From contig SYMJ01000194.1 in assembly GCA_005805505.1 (NCBI GenBank), positions 1-62,979 of the forward strand: a DNA stretch of 62,979 nt, read 5' to 3'. Shown in pieces: positions 4,620-40,949 of the stretch. The stretch is from Verrucomicrobiales bacterium. GTDB lineage: Bacteria; Verrucomicrobiota; Verrucomicrobiia; Limisphaerales; UBA9464. The first letter of the stretch is position 1; each line of letters starts with the position of its first letter. Made by a program: the position numbers and the translations under genes. The notes beneath the pieces were generated by a model that was not told the origin of the DNA, searched no databases, and saw nothing but the letters and a program-made list of their open reading frames with translations.

Positions 4620-4639
4620 CGACACAGCCCACCCCCGCG

Positions 4640-4989: not shown

Positions 4990-5940
4990 ATGAGTTCCCG
5001 CTCCACCTCCGCCCGCCCGTTCTCCTGCGTCGCCCCAGACTGGTGGGATTACACCACCCTAGACCCCGAACTCGTCGCCGACGCCGCGGCCCTCACCCCG
5101 GAGAAAATGCAGCGCCTCTCACGCCCCGGATTCAAAGTCACCCTCTACGACACCCTCGAAGAATTCTACCTCGCCGAAGCCCTCGAATACGTAGCGGCTT
5201 GGAAACAAAGCACCGACGACAACCCCGTCGGCATATGCGGCCCCATCGGACCCACCGAGCAACTGCCACTCGTCGCCCGTATCATCAACGCCTTGGGCCT
5301 CGATATCCGCTCCGGCCACTTCTGGGGCATGGACGAATGGATCATCGACGGAAAAGAAGCCTCGCCCACACACCCCCTTTCCTTCGAAAAAGCCGACCGG
5401 GAACTCTGCTTCAACCGCATTGCCCGCAAACAAGTGATGCCGGATGCACACCTGCATTTCCCGAAAGCCGACACCCGAACCTACCGCGCCTCTTGGGACG
5501 CCGGCGTCCGCTGTGCCGTCATGCAAGGCGGCCAGGGCGACGTGAAACATTGGGCTTTCAACGACCCCGTGCGCCGCTCCGGCAAATACCGTAATGCCCC
5601 GCCCACCCCAGAAGAGTACCTGAAGCTCGCCACCCGCGTCGTGGACTTGCACCCGCTGACCATTGCCCAGAACGCACGAACCAGCGGCGGCGGCAATGTG
5701 TCACTGGTACCAACCCAGGCCATCACCGTCGGCCCAGTCGAAACGTGGAAAGCCGAAACCGTCTCCATCTGGCATGCCGGTCAGCACGACAATCCCTTCG
5801 GCCAACGCCTCACCTGCCTCATGATCGCCAAAGGCATTGCCGACACCGCCGTGCCCATGTCTCTCCTGGCCCTGCATCCCAACGTGCGCTTCAACTACTT
5901 CCGCGGAGGCATCGGGCGCTGCGCGATAGAAATGCATTGA
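4990..5940 (+). CDS. Glucosamine-6-phosphate isomerase/6-phosphogluconolactonase-family (NagB-like) protein
   Basis: ATG 4990 within ORF 4612..5940; the upstream part of that ORF reads through the repeat. GMDEW and [15 protein letters not shown]-type motifs resemble the NagB/SugarP_isomerase fold. Confidence 0.6.
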
Positions 5941-6001
5941 ACTGACACCCTCCTATCAGCCGATCCAGCCAGCCCAGACCCCGCACGAAACCAATCCCTC
6001 C

Positions 6002-6055
6002 AAAAAACAACCTGAGGCCGACGGAATTCATCCATCGGCCTCAGGTTAATTTGTT
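6002..6055. terminator. Bidirectional hairpin terminator between the convergent nagB-like and hpnJ genes
   Basis: AACCTGAGGCCGA-N13-TCGGCCTCAGGTT, flanked by an A-tract (5') and a T-rich tract (3'). Confidence 0.7.
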
Positions 6056-6093
6056 GAAGCAGCTGACAAGACCACCCCCGGTCCGTCAGACGG

Positions 6094-7545
6094 TCAGTGA
6101 GCGGCCAAACTCTGAGACGCCGCCAAATCTACCTTGCGCTGATTGAGACTGCGGAAGAACTCGAAGCCCTCGCGGCATCGGCGCACCATGACACTCTTGT
6201 CTTCCAGCATGGTCTTAATGATCCGCAATATCGGACCCGAACGCAGGTAGTACCGCCGGTAGAATCGATCCACCGACTCGAAAATCTCGTCCTTAGAAAG
6301 ACCCGGATACTCGAGCGTGGACTGCTGAAAACCATCGTCATGGACGATGTCGGTCTTGTCCTTCTTGGAGAACCACCCGTTCTGGCGGGCCATCTCGTAA
6401 AGTTCGGTCCCAGGATACGGGGCCGCCAGCGACACTTGCATCGAGAACACGTCGAGATCTTGGGCAAAGCGCATGGTCTGCTCAATGGTCTCCTGAGTCT
6501 CCACAGGCAACCCGAGGATGAACGTACCGTGGATCACCACACCCACCCGATGGCAGGCCTTGGTGAAGCGACGCATCTCATCGGTGGTCACACCCTTCTT
6601 AATGCGCTTAAGGATATCGTCGTTGCCGGACTCGTAGCCGACGAGGAACAAGCGCAGACCGCAATCCTTGAAGAACCGGATGGTGTCTTCATCCAGATTA
6701 GCCCGGCTGTTGCAACTCCAGGTCACTCCCAGCGGAGCGAGCTTCTTGGCGATCTCGCGAGCCCGCGGCAGGTTGGCCGTGAAGGTATCGTCATCGAAGA
6801 AAAACTCCCGAACCTGCGGGAAGAGCTTCTTCATGTATGCCATCTCGGCAGCAACATTATCGGCCGACCGCACCCGATACTTATGGCCACCAATGGTCTG
6901 GGGCCACAGACAGAAGGTGCACTGGGCCGGGCAGCCTCGCCCCGTGTACATCGAAATGTACGGGTGCATCAGATAACCAATAAAATACTTCTCGATCTCT
7001 AGATTCCGCTTGTAGACATCGGCCACCCAAGGCAACGCATCCATGTTGTGAATGAGTTCACGCTCTGGATTGTGGATAATCTTACCTTCCTTACGGAAAC
7101 TCAGCCCTGAGATGGATTCCATCGGGCGGTCTTCGCAGACCTCCTTGCACGTGAAGTCGAACTCCTTGCGACCCACCCAATCGATCGCCGGAGAAGCCTT
7201 GAGCGTCTCGGTCGGCAAGACAGCCGTATGCGCTCCGATGAATCCGATCTTTGTCTCCGGACGCTGGGCCTTGATGGCTTCGGCCACCTTGCAGTCGTTC
7301 TTCAGCGACGGAGTCGACGTGTTAATGATGACATGGCTGAAGTCTTTGGCGATGCGCAGAGTCTCCTGGATCCCGATGTCATGGGGCGGACAATCGAGCA
7401 GGCGGGAGTTTGGCACCAGAGCGGCCGGTTGGGCCAACCAAGTCGGATACCAGAAAGAGGTCACCTCGCGGCGAGCCTGATAGCGGGCACCGGCACCGCC
7501 GTCGAAGCCGTCAAACGAGGGAGGAGACAAGAACAGGGCGGACAT
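6094..7545 (-). CDS. hpnJ: Hopanoid biosynthesis-associated B12-binding radical SAM protein HpnJ
   Basis: N-terminus MSALFLSPPSFDGFDGGAGARYQARREVTSFWYPTWLAQPAALVP and radical SAM motif GRGCPAQCTFCLWPQ match the HpnJ family almost residue for residue as I remember it. ATG at 7545. Confidence 0.85.
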   Translation of the reverse strand: MSALFLSPPSFDGFDGGAGARYQARREVTSFWYPTWLAQPAALVPNSRLLDCPPHDIGIQETLRIAKDFSHVIINTSTPSLKNDCKVAEAIKAQRPETKIGFIGAHTAVLPTETLKASPAIDWVGRKEFDFTCKEVCEDRPMESISGLSFRKEGKIIHNPERELIHNMDALPWVADVYKRNLEIEKYFIGYLMHPYISMYTGRGCPAQCTFCLWPQTIGGHKYRVRSADNVAAEMAYMKKLFPQVREFFFDDDTFTANLPRAREIAKKLAPLGVTWSCNSRANLDEDTIRFFKDCGLRLFLVGYESGNDDILKRIKKGVTTDEMRRFTKACHRVGVVIHGTFILGLPVETQETIEQTMRFAQDLDVFSMQVSLAAPYPGTELYEMARQNGWFSKKDKTDIVHDDGFQQSTLEYPGLSKDEIFESVDRFYRRYYLRSGPILRIIKTMLEDKSVMVRRCREGFEFFRSLNQRKVDLAASQSLAAH

Positions 7546-9435: not shown

Positions 9436-10677
9436 ATGAAATTCATCAGCCTATTGGGTATTGTCGCCCTCATCGGCGTGGCTTGGCTGCTCTCAGAGCA
9501 CAAGCGCCGCTTCCCGTTCCGGGCTGTGCTCTGGGGCGTAACCCTTCAGTTCTTCTTGGGATGGTTTATCCTCAAGACCGCTCCTGGCGAGGCCCTCTTC
9601 AACACCTGCCAGCAGCTTGTTTCTTGCTTCATCAGCTTTGCCAACGAAGGCAACAAACTGATGTTTGGGCCGTTGGCCAATGAAGCGGTGATGTCCAAGG
9701 CCTTTGGCCCGGAAAACGCATTGTTCTTTGCCCTAGTGATCACCGGCATCATCGTGTTGATCAGCACCGTCTCCTCGATCCTTTACCACTACGGAGTTCT
9801 GCAACTCCTCGTCCGCGCCGTGGCCTGGGTCATGCGCCAAACCATGGGCACCAGCGGCAGCGAGACCCTCAGCGCCGCAGCCAACATCTTTATGGGCCAG
9901 ACCGAGGCCCCGCTGCTCATCAAACCCTACTTGCCCGGCATGACTCGCAGTGAATTGCACTGCATGATGGTTGGCGGTTTCGCCACCATCGCCGGCAGCG
10001 TGATGGGGGTGTATTCGGGGTTGCTCAAAGTGCCCGCCGGGCACCTGTTGACCGCCAGCGTGATGAGTGCGCCGGCCGCTCTGCTCATTTCCAAGATCAT
10101 CATCCCGGAGACGCAGGTGAGCGAAACGGCCGCCGGTTCAACAGCCAAGATCGAGCGAGAGACCATCAATGGGATCGATGCCGCCTGCTCCGGCGCCAGC
10201 GACGGCATGAAGCTGGCCATTAATGTCATCGCGATGCTGCTGGCCTTCACATCGCTGGTCGCCGCCGTGAACTGGTTTCTCGGTCAGGGATTCAGCCAGC
10301 TCGGTTGGCAGACTCAACAACCCCTGCAAATCCTGCTCGGTTACGCCAACGCTCCGTTTGCTTGGCTCATGGGCATCCCCTCCAAGGATTGCTTGGCCGT
10401 GGGACAAATCTTGGGCGAACGCATCGTGCTGACCGAGTTTGTGGGGTACCTCTCACTGTCTCAGCAACAAGCGTCACTGGACCCCCGCAGTTACGTCATT
10501 GCCACCTACGCGCTCTGCGGATTCGCCAACTTCGGCAGCGTGGCCATTCAAATCGGAGGCATCGGTGCTCTGGTGCCCAGCCGACGCAAAGACCTGGCCC
10601 AAGTGGGCATCAAGGCCATGGTGGGAGGTCTCTTCGCCTGCTACATGACCGGCTGCGTGGTGGGATTCCTGCTCTGA
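9436..10677 (+). CDS. nupC: NupC/NupG-family concentrative nucleoside transporter
   Basis: MKFISLLGIVALIGVAWLLSEHKR..., GSETLSAAANIFMGQTEAPLLIKPY and FANFGSVAIQIGG motifs. ATG 9436 within ORF 9370..10677. Confidence 0.85.
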   Translation: MKFISLLGIVALIGVAWLLSEHKRRFPFRAVLWGVTLQFFLGWFILKTAPGEALFNTCQQLVSCFISFANEGNKLMFGPLANEAVMSKAFGPENALFFALVITGIIVLISTVSSILYHYGVLQLLVRAVAWVMRQTMGTSGSETLSAAANIFMGQTEAPLLIKPYLPGMTRSELHCMMVGGFATIAGSVMGVYSGLLKVPAGHLLTASVMSAPAALLISKIIIPETQVSETAAGSTAKIERETINGIDAACSGASDGMKLAINVIAMLLAFTSLVAAVNWFLGQGFSQLGWQTQQPLQILLGYANAPFAWLMGIPSKDCLAVGQILGERIVLTEFVGYLSLSQQQASLDPRSYVIATYALCGFANFGSVAIQIGGIGALVPSRRKDLAQVGIKAMVGGLFACYMTGCVVGFLL

Positions 10678-10685
10678 ACTCTCCG

Positions 10686-11507
10686 ATGCCTACAGAAATT
10701 CACCCTACAGCGGTTATCCATCCTTCAGCCCAACTCGGCGAAGGCTGCCAAGTCGGCCCCCATGCTGTCATTGATGCTCATGTGGTCCTGGGGCCTGATT
10801 GCCAGGTGGGCCCCGGTGCCTACCTGACCGGCCATACCCAACTGGGATCAGGCAATCGCATCCATGCCGGGGCGGTTCTTGGAGACGCCCCTCAAGACTT
10901 CAAATACGCGGGACAACCCACTCGACTTCGTATCGGTAACGATAACGTCTTTCGGGAACACGTGACCGTGCACCGCTCGAATCGCCTGGACGAAGACACG
11001 GTCCTCGGCGACGGAAACTTTCTAATGGCCGGCTCTCATGTCGGACACAACAGTGTTTTAGGGAACCACAATGTCCTAGCCAATGGGGCCCTGTTGGGGG
11101 GCCATGTAGTGGTGCACGACCGGGCCTTCATTTCCGGGAGCTGCCTGGTCCACCAGTTTTGCCGGATTGGTCGGCTGGCTCTGATGCAAGGCGGTTCGGC
11201 CATCTCACTCGACCTCCCTCCCTTCACGCTGGCACAGGAAACAAACATCCTCTGCGGCCTCAATCGGGTGGGATTGCGTCGGGCCGGCATTAGTCCAGAA
11301 GACCGCCGGGCCCTCCAACGCGTGTATCACCTCCTCTTTCGATCGGTCCTCCCGCGGGCCGAGCGCCTGCGTCAAGCCGCTGCCAATTTCCCTCAACCCG
11401 TCTGTCAGGAATTAATCGCCTTCGTGGCCACATCGACCCGGGGCCTGTGTGCCGATCCAGGTCGCCGGAATGGTTCCAACTCCGACGAAGAGGCCTCAAC
11501 CCACTGA
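10686..11507 (+). CDS. lpxA: Acyl-ACP--UDP-N-acetylglucosamine O-acyltransferase
   Basis: Left-handed beta-helix hexapeptide repeats (IHPTAVIHPSAQLGEGCQVGPHAVI...) and the C-terminal helical domain typical of LpxA. ATG 10686, 8 nt after the nupC stop. Confidence 0.85.
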   Translation: MPTEIHPTAVIHPSAQLGEGCQVGPHAVIDAHVVLGPDCQVGPGAYLTGHTQLGSGNRIHAGAVLGDAPQDFKYAGQPTRLRIGNDNVFREHVTVHRSNRLDEDTVLGDGNFLMAGSHVGHNSVLGNHNVLANGALLGGHVVVHDRAFISGSCLVHQFCRIGRLALMQGGSAISLDLPPFTLAQETNILCGLNRVGLRRAGISPEDRRALQRVYHLLFRSVLPRAERLRQAAANFPQPVCQELIAFVATSTRGLCADPGRRNGSNSDEEASTH

Positions 11508-11572
11508 CCCGCAATCCCAGAGGCAGCCCGGGCTCTACGGCCGGCCGATCTCTGAGCCTCCCAACGACAACG

Positions 11573-12427
11573 ATGGAATTCGCTTACTCCCTGGTCCAAC
11601 TGGCCAACGGCACCACCAGCATACGATCGCTGGCCGAAGGGGAGACCTTTCACCCAGTCATCGGCCCGGTCGCCGAGGCCGAGGCGCTGTACGTGAGACA
11701 GCTGCGACTCCCGGAACGCCTCACCGCATCCACCGATGATGAATGGGTTCTTTGGGATGTGGGGCTGGGCAGCGCAGCCAATGTCACCACCGCCCTGCGG
11801 CATCTGGCCGGGATCCCGAAACGAATTTGCATCGTCAGTTTTGATCACACCCTAGAACCGTTGCGCTTCGCCCGAGACCATGCCCAAGAGTTGGGCTATC
11901 CGTTGGGCTTCGAGACCGCCTTTGGCGCGCTGCTGGAACATCATCAGTGCGAGTTCGTCCACGATCGCCTTTCAGTCCGCTGGCAAGCTGAGGTGGCCGA
12001 TTTTCCCAGCCTCATCCAATCGGCCGCACCACTGCCGGCTCCCCACGCAATTTTCTACGACGCGTATTCCCCCGCACGGAATCCCGCGATGTGGACGCTG
12101 CCCCTGTTCCAACGACTCTTCGAGCGATTGGATCCGACTCGCCCCTGCGCCATGGCCACCTATTCCCGGGCCACCCTCCTGCGGACGACCCTGCTCCGGG
12201 CCGGCTTCTGTGTCGGCGCCGGCGAGGCCACCGGGGAAAAGGAAGAGACGACTCTGGCCGGCAATACGTTGTCCCTGATTCCTCGGCCCCTCGGAAGCGA
12301 CTGGCTTGGCCGAGCTCTGCGTTCCACCAGTGCCGAACCTCTGGAGAGCGCTGTCTACCGGCAGGCTCCTTTGTCTGAAGGGACCCGAGCCGCACTGCTG
12401 GGCCACCCCCAGTTCCGGCAGGATTAA
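11573..12427 (+). CDS. Stand-alone MnmC-like SAM-dependent methyltransferase (DUF752/Methyltransf_30 type)
   Basis: IFYDAYSPARNPAMWTLPLFQRL...ATYSRATLLRTTLLRAGFCV matches the FDAFSP..NPe.W / Tys.a..vr..L..aGF signature. Confidence 0.65.
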   Translation: MEFAYSLVQLANGTTSIRSLAEGETFHPVIGPVAEAEALYVRQLRLPERLTASTDDEWVLWDVGLGSAANVTTALRHLAGIPKRICIVSFDHTLEPLRFARDHAQELGYPLGFETAFGALLEHHQCEFVHDRLSVRWQAEVADFPSLIQSAAPLPAPHAIFYDAYSPARNPAMWTLPLFQRLFERLDPTRPCAMATYSRATLLRTTLLRAGFCVGAGEATGEKEETTLAGNTLSLIPRPLGSDWLGRALRSTSAEPLESAVYRQAPLSEGTRAALLGHPQFRQD

Positions 12428-12511
12428 ATCGTCAGACCCGGGGTTAGATTCTCAGGCGCGCAATAAGACTAGCTGAAACAAAAGCCCGTCTGGCAGAACC
12501 GGTTCCAGGGT

Positions 12512-13159
12512 TTAGAAATAGCCTGGAAAACCATCCTTCTCAAAAAGTCCGATGAAACCCAGACCACTCAATCTGGGTTGGTTCATCGATTCGACGTGAC
12601 CATCAAAAAACCAGCCATTGGCTCGGTTGGAATGACGGCCGTGGATCTCATAATCCTCATCGATTCGAAAGACATGAAACTGCCGGGCAGTAATGCCCAA
12701 ACGACCCCGACTAGTGGTATCAGCCAAGTGGAGGTACGAGGAGGGTTGTTCTATCCGCTCACTCTGGAGAAATTCTTGAAGGGGCCCGGACCGTAGGACC
12801 TCCGGAGGGTCGACCCAAACACCGAAGGTCATCAGCCAATTGGTCCAAGAAGAAGGCGGATAGGTGGGGCAAAGAAAAATGGAAGCAGGCAGGTTCTGAT
12901 GGGCCGCCACCGACTGGGCCCACGTATTGGTGATCATCAATGGCGATTGGAGACGGACCGCACCCCGATGATCCTGCGCATAAAGTTGAGTGGCCAATCC
13001 TACCTGCCGCAAATTGCCCTGACAGCGTGCCGACCCCGCCTTGGCCTTGGCCGAGGACAATGCGGGCAACAACATCGCCGCCAGGATGGCGATCACAGCA
13101 ATCACCACCAGCAACTCCACCAAGGTAAACGCCTTACTGCGGGAGATCTGCGACCTCAT
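12512..13159 (-). CDS. Prepilin-type N-terminal domain protein (DUF1559/H-X9-DG-like pseudopilin)
   Basis: [35 protein letters not shown]-terminal [12 protein letters not shown] motif. ATG 13159 within ORF 12512..13264. Confidence 0.85.
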
Positions 13160-13264
13160 TGGGCTGACATTACAAACATTGTTGAACGGGCGCCATCCCC
13201 TTCCCAAGGGACAATCCCAACCAAAACAGACCAAACCGAGCCCATCTGCGGCCAACGCCAGCAC

Positions 13265-20295: not shown

Positions 20296-21186
20296 TCAGC
20301 GGGCAGGAGGATTGATCCGCGCTCCCTTGGCCTTGAGTTGTTCGAGCTGGGCCTTGGACTGCTTGGACAGCGGATTGCCATCGAGGTAGATCCGCACGAA
20401 CGGGGCAAAGTTCCGGGTCTTCTCCAGATCGGGGGTCATCCATCGGCTCAAGGGAGCCAAGTCTCGGATGCGATTGTGGGACAACTGCAAGAAGGACGGT
20501 GCACGGATGCCGGACAACGGCGCCAGATCGCTGATACCGTTGTGGGCGGCCGAGAGCAGTGTCAAATTGCGGAAGGCTCCGAAACCCTCGATCGAGCGGA
20601 TCTTGTTGTGATCGATATACAAAGTCGCCACCCGGGGCAAATTGGTCAGCAGCGCCACCGAACCGAGACGGTTGGCCGACAAGTAAATCGAGGCAAGGTT
20701 GGTCAGACCGGACAAGGGCTTCACGTCCTTCACTCGATTGTGAGAGAGCTCGATGTATTGCAAGGCCGGCACTGAGGCCAGAGGGGCGATGATCACGACC
20801 TGATTGGAAGCCAAGTTGAGATACTGGAGCTGCTTCAGTCCGGCCAGAGGTACGAGATCAATGATCTGGTTGCCCGGGATCTCCAGCGAAGCCAACGCGA
20901 CGCAATGCTCCAGACCCGCCAAGCTGGTAATGCCCGAGAAGGGGGCAGACACCGTAGACACCGTGGCCACATCGGCCGCCGTCAGGGGATCTTGCGATTC
21001 CCGCTTGGCGAAGACCTGCCGACGCACCGCTGCTTCAAGCTTCTTGTCCTTGAAGACGGAGACCGGTGCGTTGGTGGACGCGGGCTTCTCTGCAGCCTTG
21101 GGCGCAGATTCTGCCGCGCTCATCGGCACCGAAGCCAACAGCAACACCGATGCACATAGGGAGGAGAGTATAGCTCGCTTGCTCAT
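20296..21186 (-). CDS. Secreted leucine-rich-repeat (internalin-like LRR) protein
   Basis: Signal peptide MSKRAILSSLCASVLLLASVPMSAA. About 8 repeats of 22 aa of the form L..L..L.L..N.I.D..PL. Confidence 0.8.
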   Translation of the reverse strand: MSKRAILSSLCASVLLLASVPMSAAESAPKAAEKPASTNAPVSVFKDKKLEAAVRRQVFAKRESQDPLTAADVATVSTVSAPFSGITSLAGLEHCVALASLEIPGNQIIDLVPLAGLKQLQYLNLASNQVVIIAPLASVPALQYIELSHNRVKDVKPLSGLTNLASIYLSANRLGSVALLTNLPRVATLYIDHNKIRSIEGFGAFRNLTLLSAAHNGISDLAPLSGIRAPSFLQLSHNRIRDLAPLSRWMTPDLEKTRNFAPFVRIYLDGNPLSKQSKAQLEQLKAKGARINPPAR

Positions 21187-21327: not shown

Positions 21328-22476
21328 TCAGCGCTTCGAGGACACGTTGGTCTTGAAGGCACCACGAAAGAGCCAGTGCCGCTTCAGTCCACCCACAAAG
21401 TCAGAGGAGTTGGTCAGGACCCCCTCGACCGCCGGCAGAGTGTTTGAGCGAACCGTCCCCAGAGTTCGCTCAACCTCGACCAGCGCGCCCGGCAAGGTCG
21501 TATTGAGATTGGAGACCAACGGGCCCACCCCTTGGAGTTGTTGGTTCACCTGTGAGACCAGTGGCGGAACCGTGCGGCTTAATTCGGTGAGCAGCGGTGG
21601 CAGCGTGCTGTTCAAATGGGTCAGGAGCGGAGGGGCTGTGGCGTCGAGGTTCGAGACCAAGGTACCAATGCCCCCGATCTGAGCGTTCAAATTGGTCAGA
21701 GTCACCGTCAGCGCCGAATTGAGATTGCTCGGGATCAGGATCTCCCCAAGTCCGCCGGGTCGGTCGAAGCGGGCCGACAAGTTAGTGGGGAAGAGCAAGT
21801 CGCCCAAGCCACCGGGCTTGGTGAAGGCTTCTCGGATCCGCGGTACCAGCAGAGTGAGTTCACCGATGAGATCTCCCGTGACCTCGGTGCGTATGAAGTA
21901 GCCCTTGGCGTCCTCGGCAACCGGATCATAGCGGATAAAGTTCGTAACGTTCGGCCGACCTAAATTATAGGCGTACTTGTCCCACAGGACACCCAAGGCT
22001 CCCCCGCCGGTGGCATTGGTGGACGGGGCCGTGGTGGCGATGCCAAGGCCCTGGCTGCGGGTTATCTCCAGGAAGTTTCCTCCGGCGATGTCGATGGGCA
22101 GGCCACTGACCTTGAGCTTGGAATCGGTGAAGATGTACCCGTGGTAGGGGTCCCGCACCAGGAACCGAACAAACACGTTGAAACCCTCGCTTCGGTGCCA
22201 GGAATCATCCGGGGCCGTGTCGATCTGGACCACCTCGCCGATGGTGAAACCCAGCATCTTCACCGGAGTACCCACTTTCACCGAACTGCCGTCTCGAAGG
22301 TAGGTGTAGTAGGGCACCTGACGAACCCACCACCCACGTTTGTCACCCGTGGTCTTGATGAAGAATCCCAAGCCGAGGAGTCCCACGAGTACCGCGCCCA
22401 CCAGAAAGAGCACCACGACCCATTCCACCCTTCGAAGGCGGGTCCGAAGTTGAGGGGTGAGATCCTGCAAGGCCAT
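21328..22476 (-). CDS. MCE/MlaD-family protein with a repeat-rich C-terminal tail
   Basis: N-terminal TM (WVVVLFLVGAVLVGLLGLGFFI), then an MCE beta-barrel-like region (VKVGTPVKMLGFTIGEVVQI), then tandem repeats from aa 220-335. Start is 2 nt after the MlaF-like stop. Confidence 0.75.
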   Translation of the reverse strand: MALQDLTPQLRTRLRRVEWVVVLFLVGAVLVGLLGLGFFIKTTGDKRGWWVRQVPYYTYLRDGSSVKVGTPVKMLGFTIGEVVQIDTAPDDSWHRSEGFNVFVRFLVRDPYHGYIFTDSKLKVSGLPIDIAGGNFLEITRSQGLGIATTAPSTNATGGGALGVLWDKYAYNLGRPNVTNFIRYDPVAEDAKGYFIRTEVTGDLIGELTLLVPRIREAFTKPGGLGDLLFPTNLSARFDRPGGLGEILIPSNLNSALTVTLTNLNAQIGGIGTLVSNLDATAPPLLTHLNSTLPPLLTELSRTVPPLVSQVNQQLQGVGPLVSNLNTTLPGALVEVERTLGTVRSNTLPAVEGVLTNSSDFVGGLKRHWLFRGAFKTNVSSKR

Positions 22477-22478
22477 GG

Positions 22479-23270
22479 TCAGGGACGGGGTTCAGTGAGG
22501 TCGCGGAAACCCTCTTCACCGGTAGCGGCAAGAACGGCTTCGATGTCGGTAATGATGCGCCAATGGCCGCTGGCGACCAGCGCGAAGCGCGGGTCCAGAC
22601 CCACGTACGGGCGCACCGCATCCGCCGTTGCGACGATGGTCAAGGGTTCGCCACCGAGCAAGGGATGCCCGGCCAGAGCCTCCGCCAGGAACCCGCGCCA
22701 CCAACGCAAATGGACGGCGTCCAGACCCGCCAGCGGGTTGTCGAGCAGAAGAAGATCCGGTTCCAACACCAAGCTCCGGGCCAGCGCGACCCGGCGCGAC
22801 CAAGACCGGCTCAAGGAGGTTGGTTTCCGAGAGAGGATCGATTCCAACTGGAGGTGACGGATCAACGGCTCGAATTCGCCGAGGGCCTCGTCATGGGAGC
22901 GGTTTTGGTGATAGCACCATGGAAGGAGGATGTTTTCCGCCACGCTCAGGGCAGAGAACAGTCGCCCGCTCCCATCGAAGACCAAACCCAAACGACGACG
23001 GGTCTCCCGCAATCCCGCGTCGTCCTCTCCGGAGGCATCGACGCGGCGACCAAACACGCGAACCTCGCCCGCCGCCGCCGGAATTAATCCGGCCAAGGTC
23101 TCCAAAAGCGCGGTCTTACCGGCACCCTGCGCGCCGGCCACCACCCAAAGTTCACCCGTGTCTACCGTCCAGTCCACCGCCTGAAGCGAGATCCTATCCA
23201 ATGAGGTCGAACTAGCGATCCCCAGGGATCGGGTCTCCAGCGCAACGGTGGTGGATGGAGGTGTCCTCAC
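22479..23270 (-). CDS. MlaF-like ABC ATPase subunit with degenerate catalytic motifs
   Basis: Walker A GAQGAGKT is intact. The Q-loop (VFDGSG), signature (LSRSW), Walker B (LLLLDNP) and H-loop (ATAD) are all substituted. GTG 23270 overlaps the MlaE-like stop as GTGA. Confidence 0.7.
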   Translation of the reverse strand: MRTPPSTTVALETRSLGIASSTSLDRISLQAVDWTVDTGELWVVAGAQGAGKTALLETLAGLIPAAAGEVRVFGRRVDASGEDDAGLRETRRRLGLVFDGSGRLFSALSVAENILLPWCYHQNRSHDEALGEFEPLIRHLQLESILSRKPTSLSRSWSRRVALARSLVLEPDLLLLDNPLAGLDAVHLRWWRGFLAEALAGHPLLGGEPLTIVATADAVRPYVGLDPRFALVASGHWRIITDIEAVLAATGEEGFRDLTEPRP

Positions 23271-24106
23271 AGGAGCAAGTACACGGTGATAAACAGGGCG
23301 TCGATCATCAGGCATCCCACCACGCAAACGGCCACCGTCCGCGTCGTCGCCGGGCCCACTTCCTCCAAGGTCATCGGACGGGCCAGTCCCTGATAGCAAA
23401 TCACCCAGCCGGTGAGAGCCCCGAACAGCAAGGTCTTGAGAACCCAAAGTGGGAAATCCAGAGCACTCATGGCGCCAGCGATCTGGGTGAAGAACTCGAT
23501 CGGAGACGCTTTCAATCCGCGGGCATAGGCAAAGAGATAGCCCGACCCCAGCGCTATGAGGATGAGGTAGGCACTGAGTGATACCACCGCCACCGCGAAT
23601 CCGATCACCCGGGGCACCACCAAATAATGGATCGGGTCGATCCCCAAGGCTTCGAGGGCTTCCACCTCACCTAGTGCCCGAGCCGTGCCCAATTCAACCA
23701 CCGACGCCGTACCCACTCGGGCCAGTACCAAGAGGCCAGCAATCATTGGCACCATCTCCCGCAAGAACACCGTGACAATGAATGTTCCAGTGAAGTTCCC
23801 GGCCCCAAATTGCTCCATCAGCGAGACGGTTTGCCCCACGAAGACCACACCCAGAATCACTCCGAGAAAACTAATGATGGGCAAGAGGCGTACTCCACAT
23901 CGATGGATTTCGCCCAAAACCTGAGGGCGCATTACCTCGGAATTGTCCCGATGACGCCGAGCCGCCGTCGCCAGCGTAATGAGGATGAAGGCACCCAGAC
24001 GGGTCAGGCTACGCCACTCCCCAAGCAAGGCACCCAACCACCCGAACCCTCCATCGGAATCCTCGCCGGAACCGGCGTTTTTGAGAGGGGGTGGGGTCGC
24101 CTCCAT
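23267..24106 (-). CDS. MlaE-family ABC transporter permease
   Basis: Typical MlaE length and topology. REMVPMIAGLLVLARVGTASVVELGTARALGEVEALEALGIDP matches the conserved MlaE core. Confidence 0.8.
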   Translation of the reverse strand: MEATPPPLKNAGSGEDSDGGFGWLGALLGEWRSLTRLGAFILITLATAARRHRDNSEVMRPQVLGEIHRCGVRLLPIISFLGVILGVVFVGQTVSLMEQFGAGNFTGTFIVTVFLREMVPMIAGLLVLARVGTASVVELGTARALGEVEALEALGIDPIHYLVVPRVIGFAVAVVSLSAYLILIALGSGYLFAYARGLKASPIEFFTQIAGAMSALDFPLWVLKTLLFGALTGWVICYQGLARPMTLEEVGPATTRTVAVCVVGCLMIDALFITVYLLL

Positions 24107-24120
24107 GTGCGTCGGTGGGA

Positions 24121-24864
24121 TCAGTGGCTGGCCGTCTGCGGTTCGCGCTCAATGGACGGCACCGCCGCTCCGATCAACCGCGACATGCGCTCAAAGGTCA
24201 CGTCTTCGTCCCCCGGCTCACTGAGCGAGAAAAAGGAAATGTAGGCCCAGCGCGGACTGCGCCCCTTAGAGAGGATGTCGCGGACCATTTGCCATTGGCG
24301 GGCCGAGTGGCTGGCCGTGCGGATCCCGTCGGCCACGAACCAAAACACATAGACCCCACTAATGGTCACTCGACGGCCGTCATCACGCTCGACCGAACGG
24401 GTCATGTCAAAGCGCTGCACCTCAAGGCTTCCGGGAGCCCATCCAGGGACTTCGATGCGTCGGACGGTTTGTGAGAGAATCTGCCACCCGACGCCGGTCA
24501 TGCAGTACTCGGGCCGATGAATGCTGGTCCGATCGGCACCCATCAGCACCACGCTTGCCGAAATAGAGGGGATGGAGGCTCCACCATGATAGGACCGTCG
24601 GCCGAAGGTCGTGTCCGGCGGCAGGAAGCTCAGTTCGAGTTCGGGAATGGCATCCAACTGAGATCGGTAACCCGACAACGAAGCCGGAAGGGACACCGAA
24701 TTGGAGGTAGCCAAGCGACCCAACTCGCTCAGCAGAGGAAGACCCACAATCCGCACACCGGGTTCACCCATGCGCACATGGTCTTTGAGCCATCGCAGGG
24801 AACCGGCGGCCGCGCCCATGAGGGTCAGGGCAGCAATCGTAACAACAGCAATGCGCAAGTTCAT
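24121..24864 (-). CDS. epsI: Exosortase-associated EpsI-family protein
   Basis: N-terminal anchor plus the IHRPEYCMTGVGWQI motif (H.Pe.C..g.GW) characteristic of EpsI/DUF3485. Its ATG overlaps the exosortase stop as ATGA. Confidence 0.75.
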   Translation of the reverse strand: MNLRIAVVTIAALTLMGAAAGSLRWLKDHVRMGEPGVRIVGLPLLSELGRLATSNSVSLPASLSGYRSQLDAIPELELSFLPPDTTFGRRSYHGGASIPSISASVVLMGADRTSIHRPEYCMTGVGWQILSQTVRRIEVPGWAPGSLEVQRFDMTRSVERDDGRRVTISGVYVFWFVADGIRTASHSARQWQMVRDILSKGRSPRWAYISFFSLSEPGDEDVTFERMSRLIGAAVPSIEREPQTASH

Positions 24865-25835
24865 GGCTGGGGGGTGCCAGAGTGGGTTCCTTCAGCAGGG
24901 ACTAGGGTGGACGAGCCCGAGGGCGATTCGGGTTCGCGCAGCCATCGGGCCACCAGGAACACGCAGCCGAGGGCGATGAGAAAGGTAGCGAAGCCGAACT
25001 TGGTCTCGATAGCTTCACCCGCGGCCTGGCCCGCCGCCTCCGCCACAGCGAACACCACAATGAGCCGGATGACATTGGCCAACACCGCGAAACCTGGGCT
25101 GAGCAAGATGAGAAAAACCCGACGCCATGCCGACCGAAAATTCAGGAAGGCGAAGGTAACGGTTAACAGCAGCACCACCGTGGCGCTGCGAATGCCGCTG
25201 CAGGCCGGGGCGACATCGAAGCGGAAGCCCTGCACGGTGGCCGAAGCCTTCTGTAAAACAATGGTTCCCGCCCGCTCCAGCTTCATGTTCAGAACCCATT
25301 CACAGAACGTCGTCGAGAGGACGGTGCTCAGGATCCGCAATCCGTGGGTGAGCGTGTCGAGGAAGACGGAGATCGGCACGCAGAAGAAGAACAGCAAGTA
25401 GGGAAAGGCGAAGGCGCGCATCCAAGCCCGGCCCCAGTACATCCCCATGATCCCGAAGAGCCCCACCAGAAAACCCACCACCCCGAGGCGCGTTTGCTGG
25501 ACCACATAGCCCGAAAGGTGCAACAGCAGTCCAATGGGAACTAGAGCCAGCGCCGGAGCCCAAGGTTCCTTAGGAATGGCGGCCAATTCGGTCCGACGCA
25601 TCACGACAATGGCTCCCACTAGCCAGGGGATCATCATGCCCAATTCATCATCGCGACCTTGCTTGGCACCGCCCTCATAAACCGCCTGCAGCCAACCGAA
25701 CATCGATTCGGTCTGGATGTAGCCCAGGGTGGAGTTGCCCAAGAAGTGGAAGAGCGCGAACCACGCCGCAACGACCAGCCCTAAGGCCGCCTTGTGGGGC
25801 AGGCTGTCCCACAGCGATCGCAATTCTTGAAGCAT
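24861..25835 (-). CDS. xrt: Exosortase (EpsH/Xrt family polytopic membrane transpeptidase)
   Basis: Multi-pass membrane protein with the DVAPACSGIRS active-site Cys motif and downstream LANVIRL (N..R) motif. ATG 25835; an alternative TTG lies at 25856. Confidence 0.8.
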   Translation of the reverse strand: MLQELRSLWDSLPHKAALGLVVAAWFALFHFLGNSTLGYIQTESMFGWLQAVYEGGAKQGRDDELGMMIPWLVGAIVVMRRTELAAIPKEPWAPALALVPIGLLLHLSGYVVQQTRLGVVGFLVGLFGIMGMYWGRAWMRAFAFPYLLFFFCVPISVFLDTLTHGLRILSTVLSTTFCEWVLNMKLERAGTIVLQKASATVQGFRFDVAPACSGIRSATVVLLLTVTFAFLNFRSAWRRVFLILLSPGFAVLANVIRLIVVFAVAEAAGQAAGEAIETKFGFATFLIALGCVFLVARWLREPESPSGSSTLVPAEGTHSGTPQP

Positions 25836-25968
25836 CGACGGTTGCAAGCGCCCCAAAAGTGACCCGCCCCGACACCACCACGCAAGGGCAACGTCATTCG
25901 ATCACCGTGACAAACCCGATTCATGAACCTTCTTGGCTCCTGTTTCATCTCAGTTTGCCGGGTTCGGT

Positions 25969-26121
25969 TCACCGGCGGCGATACGCCACCATAGCCAACA
26001 AACCCAATCCCAGCAGGAGCACGCCCGCCGGTTCAGGCACAGATGCCACTGCCTTTACTTCCCAGCCCGTCAGCTTGCCGGTTCCGCCCACTGGGAAAAA
26101 TAATCGTCGCCGTACAGACAC
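25969..26121 (-). CDS. Orphan mini-ORF (50 codons, GTG start) encoding little more than a PEP-CTERM sorting signal
   Basis: My own reverse-strand translation gives VSVRRRLFFPVGGTGKLTGWEVKAVAS-VPEP-AGVLLLGLGLLAMVAY-RRR-stop. It is below the 60-aa cutoff of the ORF track, has an in-frame stop at 26143..26145, has no upstream in-frame ATG, and shows no N-terminal signal peptide. Confidence 0.45.
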   Translation of the reverse strand: MSVRRRLFFPVGGTGKLTGWEVKAVASVPEPAGVLLLGLGLLAMVAYRRR

Positions 26122-26247
26122 GGACCGCTCGGAGATCGATCCCTACCTTGGCGGCTTATGATCGGACCGAGGCGTCAACTCAGCGGAGAGCGGTGTCCAC
26201 AATAAAACCCGTAAGAGGCTCAGATCGACTGGGACCCAAACAGTCTT

Positions 26248-28001: not shown

Positions 28002-31000
28002 TCACCGGGCCCCGGCCGCGGAATCCACCGGCCGGCCTGCGGACTCGCCCCGGATGAAGGCGATCAAGTCGCGCAGTTCCTGGGGAGAACGCCCGACCTC
28101 CAAGCCCTCGGGCATGAGCGATAGGCCGGTCGAGCGCAGGGAGCGGATCCTCGTCCTCGGCAACACGACCCTCTGCTCGCCGGCCTGCCGGAGGGTCACC
28201 GAATCGCCGCGCTGGGCCTCTAACAAGCCGGTGATCGTTTCGTCGTCCACGGTCTCGGCCTGATAGGCCACGAACGCAGGATTCATCGCCATGTTCGGGT
28301 CAAGGATGTTGGACAGCAAATCCTCCACGCTGCGGTGGGCCGAACCGGCCAACTCGGGTCCAACGCGCATGCCGACCTCACCCATCCGGTGACAATGGGC
28401 GCAGGACGATTCGAACACCTTGCGGCCCCGGGACGCGTCCCCACCGGCGGGCAGCTTCGCCAGCCATTCGTCCACCACCTTGCTGCGATTGGAATACTCC
28501 TCGTCACTCCAGAAGCGGGCGGCGCGCACTCGGATTTCGGCGGACCCACCCCGCAGGAGCCGGCGACGCTGCTCGAGATCGAGGTTCAACTCGCCCAAGC
28601 GGATCGTTCCCGATTCGACCGCCTCGAGGAGATCCCCATGGAGCGCTCGGCGTTCGGCCAGCAAATGGCCGGCACGGCCCCGCAGCGCGGGCGGCAATCC
28701 GGACCAACGGTCCACGAGCCATCGACCCAGCCGGGGCGGTTGGAGGCGTTCCAGCACATCGAAGGCGGCCGTCTGCACCTCGGGTTCTTCGTGAGGCGCT
28801 CCGAGCAGGCGCGACAGCCCCTCCAACCAGTCGGCCGGAGCCTCGGCCAACTCCATGGCCCGGAGACGCGGCAGGCGCAGCGTCACCGGCAAGGCGGCGT
28901 TGGTGGCCATCTGGAAAGCCTCGGCCAGCGCATGATCCACCCCGGAATCGGACGGCGCCTTAAGACGGCGCATCAATCGCAGCGCCGGAATCCACTCGGG
29001 CGCCGCGGGTCGCGCAGCGAGGGCGGTCACCCCACGGAGGGCGGCTGGTGCAACGGGAGGGACCTTTCCGGAACGGGCCAAGCCGGATTCCAACCCCTCT
29101 AAAAGCGGGCCCCGCAGCGCCGGGGCGCCCTGCAAGGCCTCCAGCAGTTCCAGTGAAACCCCGAAGTCGCCGGGAGCCGAGGTGGCCTGGACTGCCACCG
29201 ACTCGGCGAGGTCTTGCAGCGCCGCAGCAAGACTGGCATCGGAAGCCGTTCCCCCTCGCGGTAAAGCCCCCGCCAGTCGCCGCAACACCTGACCGGCCTC
29301 ACCCGGCCGCAGCGAACCCAGGACAGCCCGACGAGTCCACGGACTGGACGCATCGCGCCAATACAGCGCCGCCAGCGCGTCCACCGAGTCCGGGGTGCCC
29401 ACCGCCGCCAACGATTGGGCCGCCTGGAACCGGATCCGCGGAAGGGCATCGCGGGAAAGCTCCAGCACCCGGGCTTGGAGCCGGGCCTCCGAGGCCAGCC
29501 ACGGTTCGGACCAGCGCAGTGCGTTCTCGCGGACGCCGGGGTGCGGATCGGCCAAGGCAGTCATCAGGTCGGAGGGTTGCAGCACGCCCAAGACGCGGAG
29601 AGTGGCCAGGGCGTGCAAGCGGCCCTCCGGTCGGACCTTCGAGGTGGCCAACCGGCGAAGGGCCGGAGCCGTCTCGCGGGCCTGGCGTTCGTGGAGAAGT
29701 CGCTGAGCGGTCCCTCGAACCCAAGGATTTGGGTCGCCCAAATGACGGACCCATTGGGCGGGGGTCATCGCCGAGAGACGGGGAAACCGCCGGGGCGCAC
29801 CGCCACGCGGGGTGATGCGGTAGATGCGACCGCGGTCCTGACCGGCACGCAAATCCAGGGAGGCCCGGACCTTCTGCGGGATGTAGTCCGGGTGTTCGAT
29901 GACCTGGCGCTGCATGTCGAGCAGGTAGAGAGCGCCGTCTGGTCCCGTCTCGAGGCCCACAGGTCGGAACGACGGGTCGCGGCTGGCGAGGAACTCCCGG
30001 TCGGAATCCTCGAAGGCCCGCGAGGCACGGAACACCGGTCCATCCGGACGAATCACGTCGCGGTGCACCAGATGGCCCACCACGTCGCAGACGAAGACCG
30101 ATCCCTGCAAATCACGGGGGAACATCGGTGACTCGCAAAGGCCCATCCCACCCGCCGCCGAGAAATGCCCCGCCTGTTCCGGGTGATTGGGGCGAGTCTC
30201 GGGTTCCGAGATCGGGAAGATCTGCGCCATGTCTCCATGGTCGGAGATGCTCCCGGTGATCGACACCGCCGGGAACCCCGGATTGCGCCGCGCGTGGGCC
30301 AGCGGCAGGAAGCGGTGCTGGATGTGGTCGATGTTGTAGGTCGTGAACCCACGGCCCCAGGCGTCGAACACGAGGCCGAATCCGCCGCCGGTCCGGGCGG
30401 TCAATTCGACCTCGCCGGTGTCCGGATCGAAGGCGAAATCGTGGTCACCCAGCACGACAGACAATCCCTCCCGGAGCGGCGACGTGAGCCGACCGCCATT
30501 GCCGCCGTTGGCCACGTGGACCCGGCCGTCGAGGTGATAGCGGAGGCTGTTAGCCAGCGAATCGCTGACGCCGAGCCCCAACCCACGGAGGACGACCGTG
30601 CGCCGGTCGGCGCGTCCGTCGCCATCGGTGTCCTGGAGGAAGACGATCTCCGGAGCAGCCAGCACGAGGACGCCGTCGCGCCACGGCAGCACGCTGGTGG
30701 CGTAGCTGAGATCCGAGGCGAAGACCGTCGAGCGGTCCGGCAAGCCGTCGCCGTCGGTATCGGCCAGCCGGCGCACGGTGCTGCCCGGTCGCCCGGAGGG
30801 ACCCGCGCCGTAGGGATAGTCCCGGCATTCGGCGACAAAGGCCACGCCATCGGCAGCGAAGGCCAAGCCCACCGGATCCACCACCTGCGGCTCGGCGCAC
30901 CAGACCTCGGATGCGAGCCTGGGATCGAGTTCGAACCCACGGGTCACCGGCGCCACCGACGGCGATTCCGCACCGATCACCCCGGCGAGGCCCAGTGACC

Positions 31001-31034
31001 CGAGCGCCACCGTTAATCTCCAGCGCAACTTCAT
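28002..31034 (-). CDS. PVC-type membrane-bound dehydrogenase-domain / HEAT-repeat / C-terminal cytochrome c (CxxCH) protein
   Basis: Signal peptide. Beta-propeller-like N-terminus with DTDGDG motifs, long HEAT-like middle, C-terminal CAHCH heme site and LMPEGL motif. Confidence 0.8.
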   Translation of the reverse strand: MKLRWRLTVALGSLGLAGVIGAESPSVAPVTRGFELDPRLASEVWCAEPQVVDPVGLAFAADGVAFVAECRDYPYGAGPSGRPGSTVRRLADTDGDGLPDRSTVFASDLSYATSVLPWRDGVLVLAAPEIVFLQDTDGDGRADRRTVVLRGLGLGVSDSLANSLRYHLDGRVHVANGGNGGRLTSPLREGLSVVLGDHDFAFDPDTGEVELTARTGGGFGLVFDAWGRGFTTYNIDHIQHRFLPLAHARRNPGFPAVSITGSISDHGDMAQIFPISEPETRPNHPEQAGHFSAAGGMGLCESPMFPRDLQGSVFVCDVVGHLVHRDVIRPDGPVFRASRAFEDSDREFLASRDPSFRPVGLETGPDGALYLLDMQRQVIEHPDYIPQKVRASLDLRAGQDRGRIYRITPRGGAPRRFPRLSAMTPAQWVRHLGDPNPWVRGTAQRLLHERQARETAPALRRLATSKVRPEGRLHALATLRVLGVLQPSDLMTALADPHPGVRENALRWSEPWLASEARLQARVLELSRDALPRIRFQAAQSLAAVGTPDSVDALAALYWRDASSPWTRRAVLGSLRPGEAGQVLRRLAGALPRGGTASDASLAAALQDLAESVAVQATSAPGDFGVSLELLEALQGAPALRGPLLEGLESGLARSGKVPPVAPAALRGVTALAARPAAPEWIPALRLMRRLKAPSDSGVDHALAEAFQMATNAALPVTLRLPRLRAMELAEAPADWLEGLSRLLGAPHEEPEVQTAAFDVLERLQPPRLGRWLVDRWSGLPPALRGRAGHLLAERRALHGDLLEAVESGTIRLGELNLDLEQRRRLLRGGSAEIRVRAARFWSDEEYSNRSKVVDEWLAKLPAGGDASRGRKVFESSCAHCHRMGEVGMRVGPELAGSAHRSVEDLLSNILDPNMAMNPAFVAYQAETVDDETITGLLEAQRGDSVTLRQAGEQRVVLPRTRIRSLRSTGLSLMPEGLEVGRSPQELRDLIAFIRGESAGRPVDSAAGAR

Positions 31035-39415: not shown

Positions 39416-40843
39416 ATGAACTCATGCTCAGGCCCATTGTCCCGACGCAGCTTCCTGGAACTAGGAGGCATCAGCGCCTTGGGCTTGGGCCTGAGTGATT
39501 TTCTGCGCCTGCGTTCCTTGGCTGCGTCCGGCGCACCGTTGGGCATTCCGAACACGCAGGATAAGGCCGTCATCTTCGTGTGGCTGCCGGGCGGGCCCTC
39601 GCAGCTCGACACCTACGACATGAAGCCGGATGCGCCGTCGGAATTCCGCGGCGATTTCCGGCCCATCCGGACCAACGTGCCGGGCATAGACATTTGCGAA
39701 CTCTTCCCCCGGCAGGCGAAGGTCGCCGACCGCTTCACGCTGGTGCGCTCGGTGTGCCACGACTTCTCTGACCATGGTGGTGCGCACAAGCGCTTCATGA
39801 CCGGACGCATCCCGGCCACACCCACCGAATTCGTCAACGACGCGCCGGCCGTCACGTCCATCGTGAGCCGCGCCTTGGAGGCTCGACAAAAATCCGGCCT
39901 TCCGGCCTGCATCACCGGTGTCGACGACGGACGCAGCCACATCGACGTCTTCAGCCTCGGGCCCTCTTACCTAGGAACCAGCCACACGCCCTTCATGGTG
40001 GTGGGCGACCCCAGCGCACCCAACTTCAAGGTTCAGAACCTCAGCCTCACCCCGGACATGGCTACCCGGATGGAGGATCGATCCCATTTACTTTCCGGAA
40101 TGGACCGGCTCCGTCGCGATCTCGACAGCAGCGGGTTGATGGAGTCGATGGATCAATTCAGCCAGCGGGCGGTCACCATGCTAACGCACGCCGGGGTCCA
40201 AAAAGCCTTCGACCTTCAGCACGAGACGCCTGCCACCCGGGAGCGCTACGGCTGGAACGCCTACGGACAACGGGGGTTGCTAGCCCGACGCCTGGTCGAA
40301 GCCGGTTGCCCCTTCGTGACCATGGTTTGGGAGAACCCCTTCCCCAGCAAACCCATCCCTGCCGGATGCACCTACAACTGGGACTCCCACGCGGTCAATT
40401 GCCACATCTTCGAAGACTCCAAGTGGCGCTTCCCGGCTTATGATCAAGCGGTGGCCGCCCTAATCGAAGACCTCTACGACCGCGGCCTCGACCAGCGGGT
40501 GCTCTTGGTAGTCACCGGAGAGTTTGGTCGTACCCCCCGGTTGGAACGGGTCAAAGGATCCCAGACTGGCGTCATGCAACCCGGCCGAGACCATTGGCCG
40601 CAAGCGATGTCACTCTTGGTCTCCGGCGGCGGTATGCGCACCGGACAAATCGTCGGAGCCACCAACGCCCGGGCTGAATACCCCACCGAACGCCTGCTGA
40701 GCCCCAACGACCTCTGGGCCACCGTCTACCGGCACCTGGGCATCGACGCCTCGGAATCCATTCTAGATTTAGGCGGCCGACCCATGCCCATCCTCCCTTT
40801 CGGCAAACCCATCGAAGAGCTGCTGCCCCGAGTTGGGGCCTGA
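39416..40843 (+). CDS. DUF1501 (sulfatase-like fold) protein with TAT-type signal
   Basis: SRRSFLELGG, VIFVWLPGGPSQLDTYDMKPDAP, and GEFGRTPR...GRDHW C-terminal motif typical of DUF1501. Confidence 0.85.
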   Translation: MNSCSGPLSRRSFLELGGISALGLGLSDFLRLRSLAASGAPLGIPNTQDKAVIFVWLPGGPSQLDTYDMKPDAPSEFRGDFRPIRTNVPGIDICELFPRQAKVADRFTLVRSVCHDFSDHGGAHKRFMTGRIPATPTEFVNDAPAVTSIVSRALEARQKSGLPACITGVDDGRSHIDVFSLGPSYLGTSHTPFMVVGDPSAPNFKVQNLSLTPDMATRMEDRSHLLSGMDRLRRDLDSSGLMESMDQFSQRAVTMLTHAGVQKAFDLQHETPATRERYGWNAYGQRGLLARRLVEAGCPFVTMVWENPFPSKPIPAGCTYNWDSHAVNCHIFEDSKWRFPAYDQAVAALIEDLYDRGLDQRVLLVVTGEFGRTPRLERVKGSQTGVMQPGRDHWPQAMSLLVSGGGMRTGQIVGATNARAEYPTERLLSPNDLWATVYRHLGIDASESILDLGGRPMPILPFGKPIEELLPRVGA

Positions 40844-40949
40844 CAGGTGCCGATATAGGTTCTACAAAATCACTTCTCTAAACTCCGCTCCGTTCTGGCG
40901 GCCGACCATTGCCAGCGGTGAGGGCGAAGCGGCATTATGTCCGCTCGCC

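Follow-up and report, generated by a model that had tools for sequence, protein, structure and literature searches.

An exosortase-EpsI gene pair joined to an Mla-like MCE cassette in a clade of uncultured freshwater Verrucomicrobiota

A 63-kb stretch of DNA from a Verrucomicrobiales bacterium (contig SYMJ01000194.1, assembly GCA_005805505.1, positions 1 to 62,979; termed the window below) carries on its minus strand an exosortase gene (xrt) and its companion epsI, which are followed by a three-gene mlaE-ABC-mce cassette encoding an MlaE-family permease, an ATP-binding cassette (ABC) protein and an MCE protein. This five-gene join is real, and the members of one clade of uncultured freshwater Verrucomicrobiota (Limisphaerales/Pedosphaera-like) have inherited it. 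The probable explanation is a single lineage-specific operon fusion in the ancestor of that clade, which would have brought the two modules into co-expression. The evidence comprises Pfam scans of about 45 main open reading frames (ORFs) of the window, together with comparisons to related loci, which were extracted and labelled L001-L170 and in which neighbouring genes were checked to 10 kb.

Layout of the five-gene locus

The five genes of the block are as follows.

24861..25835, minus strand: Xrt exosortase, 324 amino acids (PF09721, E=7e-31)
24121..24864, minus strand: EpsI (DUF3485) exosortase-associated protein, 247 amino acids (PF11984, E=3e-12)
23267..24106, minus strand: MlaE-family permease of a "type-2" cassette, 279 amino acids (PF02405, E=2e-48)
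22479..23270, minus strand: MlaF-like ABC nucleotide-binding protein, 263 amino acids (ABC_tran, E=2e-23), with degenerate catalytic motifs
21328..22476, minus strand: long single-domain MCE protein, 382 amino acids (PF02470, MlaD, E=1e-7)

The genes are packed with almost no spacing. The end of xrt reads CCA TGA on the reverse strand and overlaps the epsI start as ATGA (24861-24864), a gap of 14 nucleotides (nt) separates the epsI stop (24121) from the mlaE start (24106), the mlaE stop and the GTG start of the ATPase gene overlap as GTGA (23267-23270), and the ATPase stop (22479) lies 2 nt from the mce start (22476). An earlier, sequence-only reading of this DNA had described six tightly packed minus-strand genes, namely these five and a small upstream ORF with a PEP-CTERM-like tail. 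All six ORFs lie where that reading had placed them, each of the junctions that it gave (ATGA, 14 nt, GTGA, 2 nt, and a leucine-rich repeat (LRR) gene at 141 nt) was found again on the reverse strand, and its family calls (Xrt, EpsI, MlaE, ABC, MCE/MlaD, LRR and PEP-CTERM) were matched by Pfam and NCBIfam searches. The tight packing holds for the five genes from xrt to mce and fails for the mini PEP-CTERM ORF, which ends 133 nt from the xrt ATG and is absent from the relatives.

Xrt matches Pfam PF09721 at 107.9 bits (cut-off 25.7) and the exosortase/archaeosortase signature TIGR04178 at 56 bits (cut-off 23). The earlier reading had also proposed that its subtype be settled with the NCBIfam Xrt models, none of which reaches its cut-off: the best subtype score, 95.5 bits, comes from the XrtA model TIGR03109, for which the cut-off is 208, and the models for the W, D, V, C, B, O and T subtypes all score far under theirs. 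Because every subtype model stays below its cut-off, the window Xrt is, by this measure, an unclassified XrtA-like Verrucomicrobiota subtype. An alignment of 15 homologues, which span 39-89% identity, shows no variation at the catalytic Cys212 (in the motif APACSGIRS), at Asn254 or at the catalytic Arg257, and the ATG start at 25835 agrees with the N-termini of homologues. EpsI scores 47.2 bits against PF11984 (cut-off 26.1) and 32.2 bits against TIGR02914, which is under the cut-off of 42.8.

Conservation and single origin of the join

With the window Xrt as the probe, one genome for each GTDB species was scanned, which yielded 80 related loci, all of them Verrucomicrobiota-type. About 78 of these have the xrt-epsI pair, and mlaE-ABC-mce follows epsI only in six (L001-L005 and L008), where Xrt is at least 70% identical to that of the window. 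The remaining 74 loci, with Xrt at most 52% identical, contain no homologue of the cassette MlaE, ABC protein or MCE protein within 10 kb. Further fused loci were recovered from metagenomes (L081/82, with Xrt 55% and MlaE 64% identical; L166/167; L168/169), and the fused clade as a whole spans Xrt identities of 55-93%, with ATPase identities reaching down to 48%.

The fused junctions were measured in eight other loci (L001-L005, L008 and L081/82), where they amount to -4 nt between xrt and epsI, +11 to +31 nt between epsI and mlaE, and -4 to +6 and +2 to +56 nt at the two junctions that follow; the 4-nt xrt/epsI overlap is present in all fused loci. The genes around the block vary, being panB and an LRR gene in the window, Phos_pyr_kin and a PKD protein in L081, and pectate-lyase-like and flagellin genes in L166. 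Since the five genes are kept together while their flanks differ, the block is regarded as a stable unit within one clade. The neighbourhood conservation that the sequence-only reading had proposed to check is accordingly seen across this clade, where the flanks change, and not in the 74 of 80 related Xrt loci that are without Mla genes.

In neighbour-joining trees, all nine fused MlaEs form a single clade inside the free-standing type-2 proteins, with L083 and L084 as sisters, and all eight fused Xrts likewise form one clade, with L006/7/9/10/12 as sisters; in at least two members of this Xrt sister group, L009 and L010, a Bac_transf gene comes after epsI. Because each of the two trees gives a single fused clade, one juxtaposition event is indicated, and an origin of this kind does not show that both machines work together. 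No independent xrt-cassette linkage was encountered among the 74 non-fused Xrt loci and 80 metagenome cassette loci, a survey in which very distant exosortase subtypes could be missed. The earlier statement that the linkage had not been described agrees with the searched literature, in which no paper mentions both an exosortase and MlaE, and the two that mention an exosortase and Mla are, by their titles, on unrelated topics.

The titles of several metagenome-assembled genomes that contain related loci (L001, L005, L012, L014, L067 and L080) include "Akkermansia muciniphila", "Bifidobacteriaceae", "Cyanophyceae" and "Omnitrophota". The xrt loci themselves are Limisphaerales-type, and the odd titles are probably taxonomic mislabels or the result of mis-binned contigs.

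Each module in other contexts

Outside the fused clade, the xrt-epsI pair has a different partner. Of the 63 non-fused loci whose downstream sequence was long enough to judge, 58 have, on the same strand and at most 3 kb after epsI, a Bac_transf gene (PF02397, E=3e-68) for an exopolysaccharide (EPS)-priming polyprenyl-phosphate sugar transferase. This gene is usually followed by a NAD-dependent epimerase/dehydratase gene, and a WecG/TagA glycosyltransferase gene often lies upstream. Such an EPS gene context is the classic setting of EpsH (PMC1569441). Neither Bac_transf nor WecG/TagA nor the epimerase was found in the window or within 10 kb in any fused locus, and the window holds no second xrt, mlaE or mce gene and no pil gene. 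In L170, which equals L015, the order is panB, Xrt, EpsI, an Xrt::EpsI fusion, Bac_transf and epimerase, and panB stands upstream as it does in the window. Because of this shared upstream panB, the window locus looks positionally homologous to that of L170, with the cassette in the Bac_transf slot. Bona fide PEP-CTERM proteins were seen in the related loci L010 and L015.

Tandem exosortase-EpsI units occur in L013 (10001-13986) and in L015/L170 (10001-13378), in each case followed by Bac_transf and the epimerase, and the second unit in L170 is one 556-amino-acid Xrt::EpsI fusion protein. These arrangements point to paralogous exosortases within one EPS locus.

The cassette is likewise found without its present partner. 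The nearest MlaE outside the fused clade (62% identical) belongs to a free-standing mlaE-ABC-mce operon, further ones are present in L084 and L085, and about 85 such loci are made up by L083-85 and 80 metagenome loci from a scan seeded on a distant type-2 MCE protein. In the metagenome loci, mlaE-ABC-mce was seen wherever the upstream sequence sufficed, except in L090. Not one of the approximately 85 free-standing cassettes has xrt or epsI nearby, including 25 with at least 2 kb of sequence upstream of mlaE, and no constant partner of the free-standing cassette was found in their variable flanks.

A specialised paralogue of the Mla system

The window MlaE scores 165 bits against PF02405 (cut-off 22.5), and its scores against the NCBIfam models lie well under their thresholds (114.9 against TIGR00056, cut-off 212; 96.9 against the equivalog NF033619, cut-off 315), by which the protein is a divergent paralogue. 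In L084, a type-2 cassette orthologue (10001-12780) lies 4 kb from a canonical MlaE/ABC ATPase/MlaD set (1-6353) on one contig. The MlaD of the canonical set has a Helical_needle domain, this set, and not the type-2 cassette, adjoins a 650-amino-acid MlaA homologue, and its MlaE falls on a very long branch apart from the type-2 MlaEs in the neighbour-joining tree. No MlaA, MlaB (STAS) or MlaC was detected by Pfam in the operon or among the main window ORFs. As judged from these comparisons, the window cassette is a specialised paralogue distinct from housekeeping Mla. The sequence-only reading had considered that the cassette might be the only housekeeping Mla system of the genome, a concern removed by its membership in a separate paralogue family that stands beside a canonical set in L084.

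The best relatives of the ATPase in the Protein Data Bank are Acinetobacter MlaF structures (7d06_B and 6z5u_K, E=2e-20), and the earlier designation as an MlaF-like ATPase agrees with these nearest solved relatives and needs correction as regards the catalytic motifs, which are degenerate. Walker A (GAQGAGKT) is intact. The Q-loop reads VFDGSG, with Gln replaced by Asp, against VFQSGG in the canonical L084 copy; the LSGGQ signature is lost to LSRSW, against LSGGM; Walker B reads LLLLDNP, with DE changed to DN, against LILFDEP; and the H-loop reads IVATAD, with His replaced by Asp, against VVVTH. The same substitutions are seen on alignment to the solved Acinetobacter MlaF, and the degeneracy is common to all fused and free-standing orthologues examined (L001-5, L008, L081-85 and L086-165).

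A search of 1.84 billion representatives of 50% clusters returned 105 ATPase relatives at E<=1e-30. In the 103 nearest single-domain representatives, the catalytic Glu is lost in 95, the Q-loop Gln in 101 and the H-loop His in 100. Since the catalytic Glu, the Q-loop Gln, the signature GG and the H-loop His are all lost, the homodimeric nucleotide-binding domain (NBD) in the MlaF position is predicted to bind nucleotide without hydrolysing it, which makes it a poor fit to a simple reading as an Mla-type transporter. Nothing on a degenerate MlaF was found in the searched literature.

The MCE protein matches PF02470 at 32.3 bits (cut-off 25.1). Its AlphaFold2 monomer model comprises a transmembrane helix (8-47), an MCE domain (53-200) with a predicted local distance difference test score (pLDDT) of about 90, and a helical "needle" region of about 170 residues (203-366) modelled at low confidence (pLDDT <50). 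In Foldseek comparisons, its fold comes closest to Mce1 subunits (8fed) and MlaD (7cha/5uw2), at a probability of 1.00. In an alignment of 40 type-2 homologues, the cytoplasmic N-terminus (MALQDLTPQLRTRL) and the C-terminal tail RHWLFR[SG]AF are near invariant, the tail reading RHWLFRGAF in the window protein. Compared with their free-standing relatives, the MCE proteins of the fused clade carry extra "LNxxLPPL"-type repeats in the helical region.

The upstream region and the downstream neighbour

Three further features flank the block.

25969..26121, minus strand: mini PEP-CTERM ORF, 50 amino acids (PF07589, 29.3 bits against a cut-off of 20.7)
25854..25896, minus strand: candidate promoter element 5' of xrt, recognised by alignment with fused relatives
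20296..21186, minus strand: secreted LRR protein, 296 amino acids (LRR_4/LRR_8 matches), a neighbour only

The mini PEP-CTERM ORF encodes the sole PEP-CTERM-like tail in the window. Its sequence contains no signal peptide, and the ORF was absent from every relative as judged by blastn, relaxed tblastn and a C-terminal motif scan, the last of which detected no PEP-CTERM tail in any fused locus. It was accordingly rejected as a sixth operon gene and is placed outside the unit because it is missing from all relatives and has no signal peptide. The gap between panB and xrt is 412 nt in the window versus about 100 nt in L001, the closest relative (Xrt 93% identical), and blastn homology to L001 upstream of xrt is confined to the last 62 nt (82%), as it is for L168/169. 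Between panB and xrt lies a window-specific segment of about 300 nt (25969-26247, minus strand), which is absent from L001, L168/169 and L166. The mini ORF probably represents either a piece of a gene or an insertion peculiar to the window, and the inserted segment may be what is left of the 3' end of a decayed PEP-CTERM gene.

Directly 5' of xrt, an element of about 45 nt (GACGTTGCCCTTGCG...GGGTCACTTT) aligns with L001, L168, L003 and L081. Its layout, TTGC-N17-TCACTT, is promoter-like, it has no Rfam match, and it is a possible operon promoter. Rfam and tRNA scans revealed no RNA element in the window, and a promoter and terminator scan gave nothing above shuffled sequences, a simple promoter scan being uninformative for this phylum. 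No terminator-like site was seen between epsI and mlaE in the terminator scan.

On the other side of the block, the LRR gene starts at 21186, 141 nt beyond the mce stop at 21328. It is kept only in the nearest relatives (L001 and L168/169), and its place in the other fused loci is taken by genes that are unrelated or lie on the opposite strand. The LRR protein sequence shows no PEP-CTERM tail.

Other genes of the window

Elsewhere in the window, two large paralogous DUF7133-HEAT proteins are encoded at 28002-31034 (minus strand) and 40833-44147 (plus strand), the first with a C-terminal cytochrome c domain. One of the two DUF7133-HEAT genes immediately precedes the xth-panB-xrt region, a position that it also has in L001 and L166. 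A 1363-amino-acid ORF without a Pfam match (46556-50647, minus strand) overlaps with its start the end of an N_methyl/DUF1559 prepilin-type protein (45690-46559, minus strand), and two more N_methyl proteins are found at 12512-13264 and 56307-57125. A 1472-amino-acid protein (57202-61620, plus strand) combines Lamin Tail Domains with a CotH kinase-like domain and a Big_5 domain.

Comparison with known systems

The exosortase half resembles the XrtA (EpsH)/EpsI system (Haft et al. 2006, PMC1569441) in its polytopic Exosortase_EpsH protein with conserved Cys and Arg, in a separate epsI that follows xrt with overlapping stop and start, in XrtA being the best-scoring subtype model, and in the location of relatives of the window Xrt among EPS genes. 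It differs in a score of only 95.5 against the XrtA cut-off of 208, in the MlaE/NBD/MCE genes that replace the EPS-priming neighbour, and in having no PrsK/R/T or EPS genes within the 63 kb of the window. The archaeosortase ArtA of Haloferax volcanii (PMC7157517) is a homologous transpeptidase-like enzyme whose products are lipid-anchored, which provides a precedent for a membrane-lipid link; in contrast to the window system, it acts on a PGF-CTERM signal, has no EpsI and no MCE/Mla partner, and operates in a single-membrane cell.

The cassette shares with the proteobacterial MlaFEDB-MlaC-MlaA system (6xbd, 7d06; PMC7790496) a permease, an NBD and a transmembrane-anchored MCE protein encoded in the same order, whereas the window MCE protein has twice the length and a helical extension, the NBD is degenerate, and MlaB, MlaC and MlaA are found neither in the operon nor in the window. 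The minimal MlaEFD of Veillonella parvula (Grasekamp et al. 2023, PMC10665443) also consists of three core genes and has no shuttle protein, and its long MlaD likewise has a transmembrane segment, an MCE domain and elongated helices that are poorly modelled as an AlphaFold monomer. The same paper reports a barrel-less long MlaD for PVC (Planctomycetes-Verrucomicrobia-Chlamydiae) phyla, and the window MCE protein fits this class. Unlike the V. parvula protein, it has no C-terminal beta-barrel and ends instead in the short invariant RHWLFRxAF tail; the degenerate ATPase and the exosortase linkage in one clade are further differences. Mycobacterial Mce1 (8fed/8fef) is the best full-length fold match, with a transmembrane segment, a single MCE domain and a long needle in each subunit, and its MCE subunits likewise act alongside an ABC ATPase and YrbE permeases, which belong to the MlaE family. 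Mce1 consists of six different Mce proteins with the canonical ATPase MceG, whereas the window has one mce gene, which implies a homohexamer, and a degenerate ATPase.

Interpretation of the join

The explanation we favour is that an XrtA-like xrt-epsI pair, which normally stands beside an EPS-priming transferase, became joined head-to-tail to the three-gene cassette in one ancestor. Because the junctions overlap or span 11-31 nt, we infer that the five genes are most likely co-transcribed from a promoter directly 5' of xrt. The single operon postulated by the sequence-only reading can be retained for the five genes, which are so arranged and keep the short epsI-mlaE gap across the fused loci, and has to give up the mini PEP-CTERM ORF. 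After the join, each half would probably have kept its own job. Xrt/EpsI would cleave PEP-CTERM tails from exported proteins whose genes lie in other parts of the genome, and the cassette would probably form an inner-membrane MlaE2-NBD2-MCE6 complex with a helical needle through which hydrophobic molecules cross the periplasm. In view of the lost NBD motifs, this complex would probably be gated when nucleotide binds and not be driven by hydrolysis.

Several points weigh against this explanation. The block is kept down to 55% Xrt identity despite reshuffled flanks, as selection for joint function would also give, and the cassette sits exactly in the position of the EPS-priming gene, which could mean functional replacement and not accident. 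An internal promoter may lie inside epsI, and a second xrt-epsI pair or type-2 cassette may be located beyond the loci analysed.

A dedicated pathway, in which the exosortase transfers PEP-CTERM proteins to a lipid or uses a lipid acceptor and the MlaE/NBD/MCE needle either provides this lipid or brings the lipid-linked product closer to the outer membrane, is considered rather unlikely. Such a pathway would account for five tightly coupled genes that are kept amid changing flanks, for a cassette that is a specialised paralogue and not housekeeping Mla, and for its place in the Bac_transf slot, so that the usual EPS partner is missing from the 63 kb around xrt; the lipid-anchored products of the archaeal homologue ArtA (PMC7157517) would also suit it. 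The linkage is, however, one evolutionary event, about 85 cassette loci exist without xrt and 74 Xrt-family loci without Mla, the block contains no conserved PEP-CTERM substrate, and the NBD is predicted to be inactive. In addition, solved MCE tunnels are generally known to enclose lipids, not lipid-linked proteins.

A direct hand-off of lipid or protein between the exosortase and the cassette is neither refuted nor backed by the comparative evidence, and it is given a low probability because the join is a single event, the modules are independent elsewhere, no substrate is linked and the ATPase is predicted to be dead. A more specific proposal, which we hold to be unlikely, is that the exosortase of this clade partners a specialised non-hydrolysing MCE machine instead of an EPS-priming enzyme, with PEP-CTERM proteins becoming lipid-linked and the needle supplying the lipid or moving the anchor to the outer membrane. 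A separate and likewise tentative idea is that the MlaF-like NBDs without hydrolysis motifs, a family of about 100 clusters, would mark out a class of MCE transporters that is new and either energy-independent or gated by binding.

Neutral adjacency, by which the cassette was rearranged beside xrt-epsI and has its own promoter in the 3' end of epsI with no regulatory link, is quite unlikely. Both modules are autonomous elsewhere, and a simple promoter scan, being uninformative for the phylum, leaves room for such a promoter, yet the epsI-mlaE gap is 11-31 nt in all fused loci measured, with no terminator-like site in between, and order and orientation are unbroken in the five fused lineages sampled, though both flanks changed. 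That the cassette is simply the genome's ordinary Mla system beside an exosortase, as the Pfam assignments to MlaE and MlaD and the MlaF-like best solved relatives of the ATPase might suggest, is very improbable and was rejected in view of NCBIfam MlaE scores under cut-off, the long branch that separates it from canonical MlaE, its coexistence with canonical MlaE/F/D and MlaA in L084, an NBD that has lost four catalytic motifs still intact in the canonical copy, and the absence of MlaA/B/C among the scanned window ORFs.

Significance

To our knowledge, the acceptor and the final destination of bacterial exosortase substrates are unknown, and we know of no transporter that has been tied to an exosortase system. 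The Xrt/EpsI-MCE operon, while resting on one event in uncultured freshwater bacteria, offers a concrete and testable candidate for such a conduit. If the fusion is merely regulatory, it would represent ordinary operon shuffling. The cassette also raises the question of how, or whether, a widespread Mla paralogue with a degenerate ATPase, standing beside canonical Mla, is energised. If a partnership between the exosortase and the MCE machine proved true, it would give the first hint at the acceptor of bacterial exosortases.

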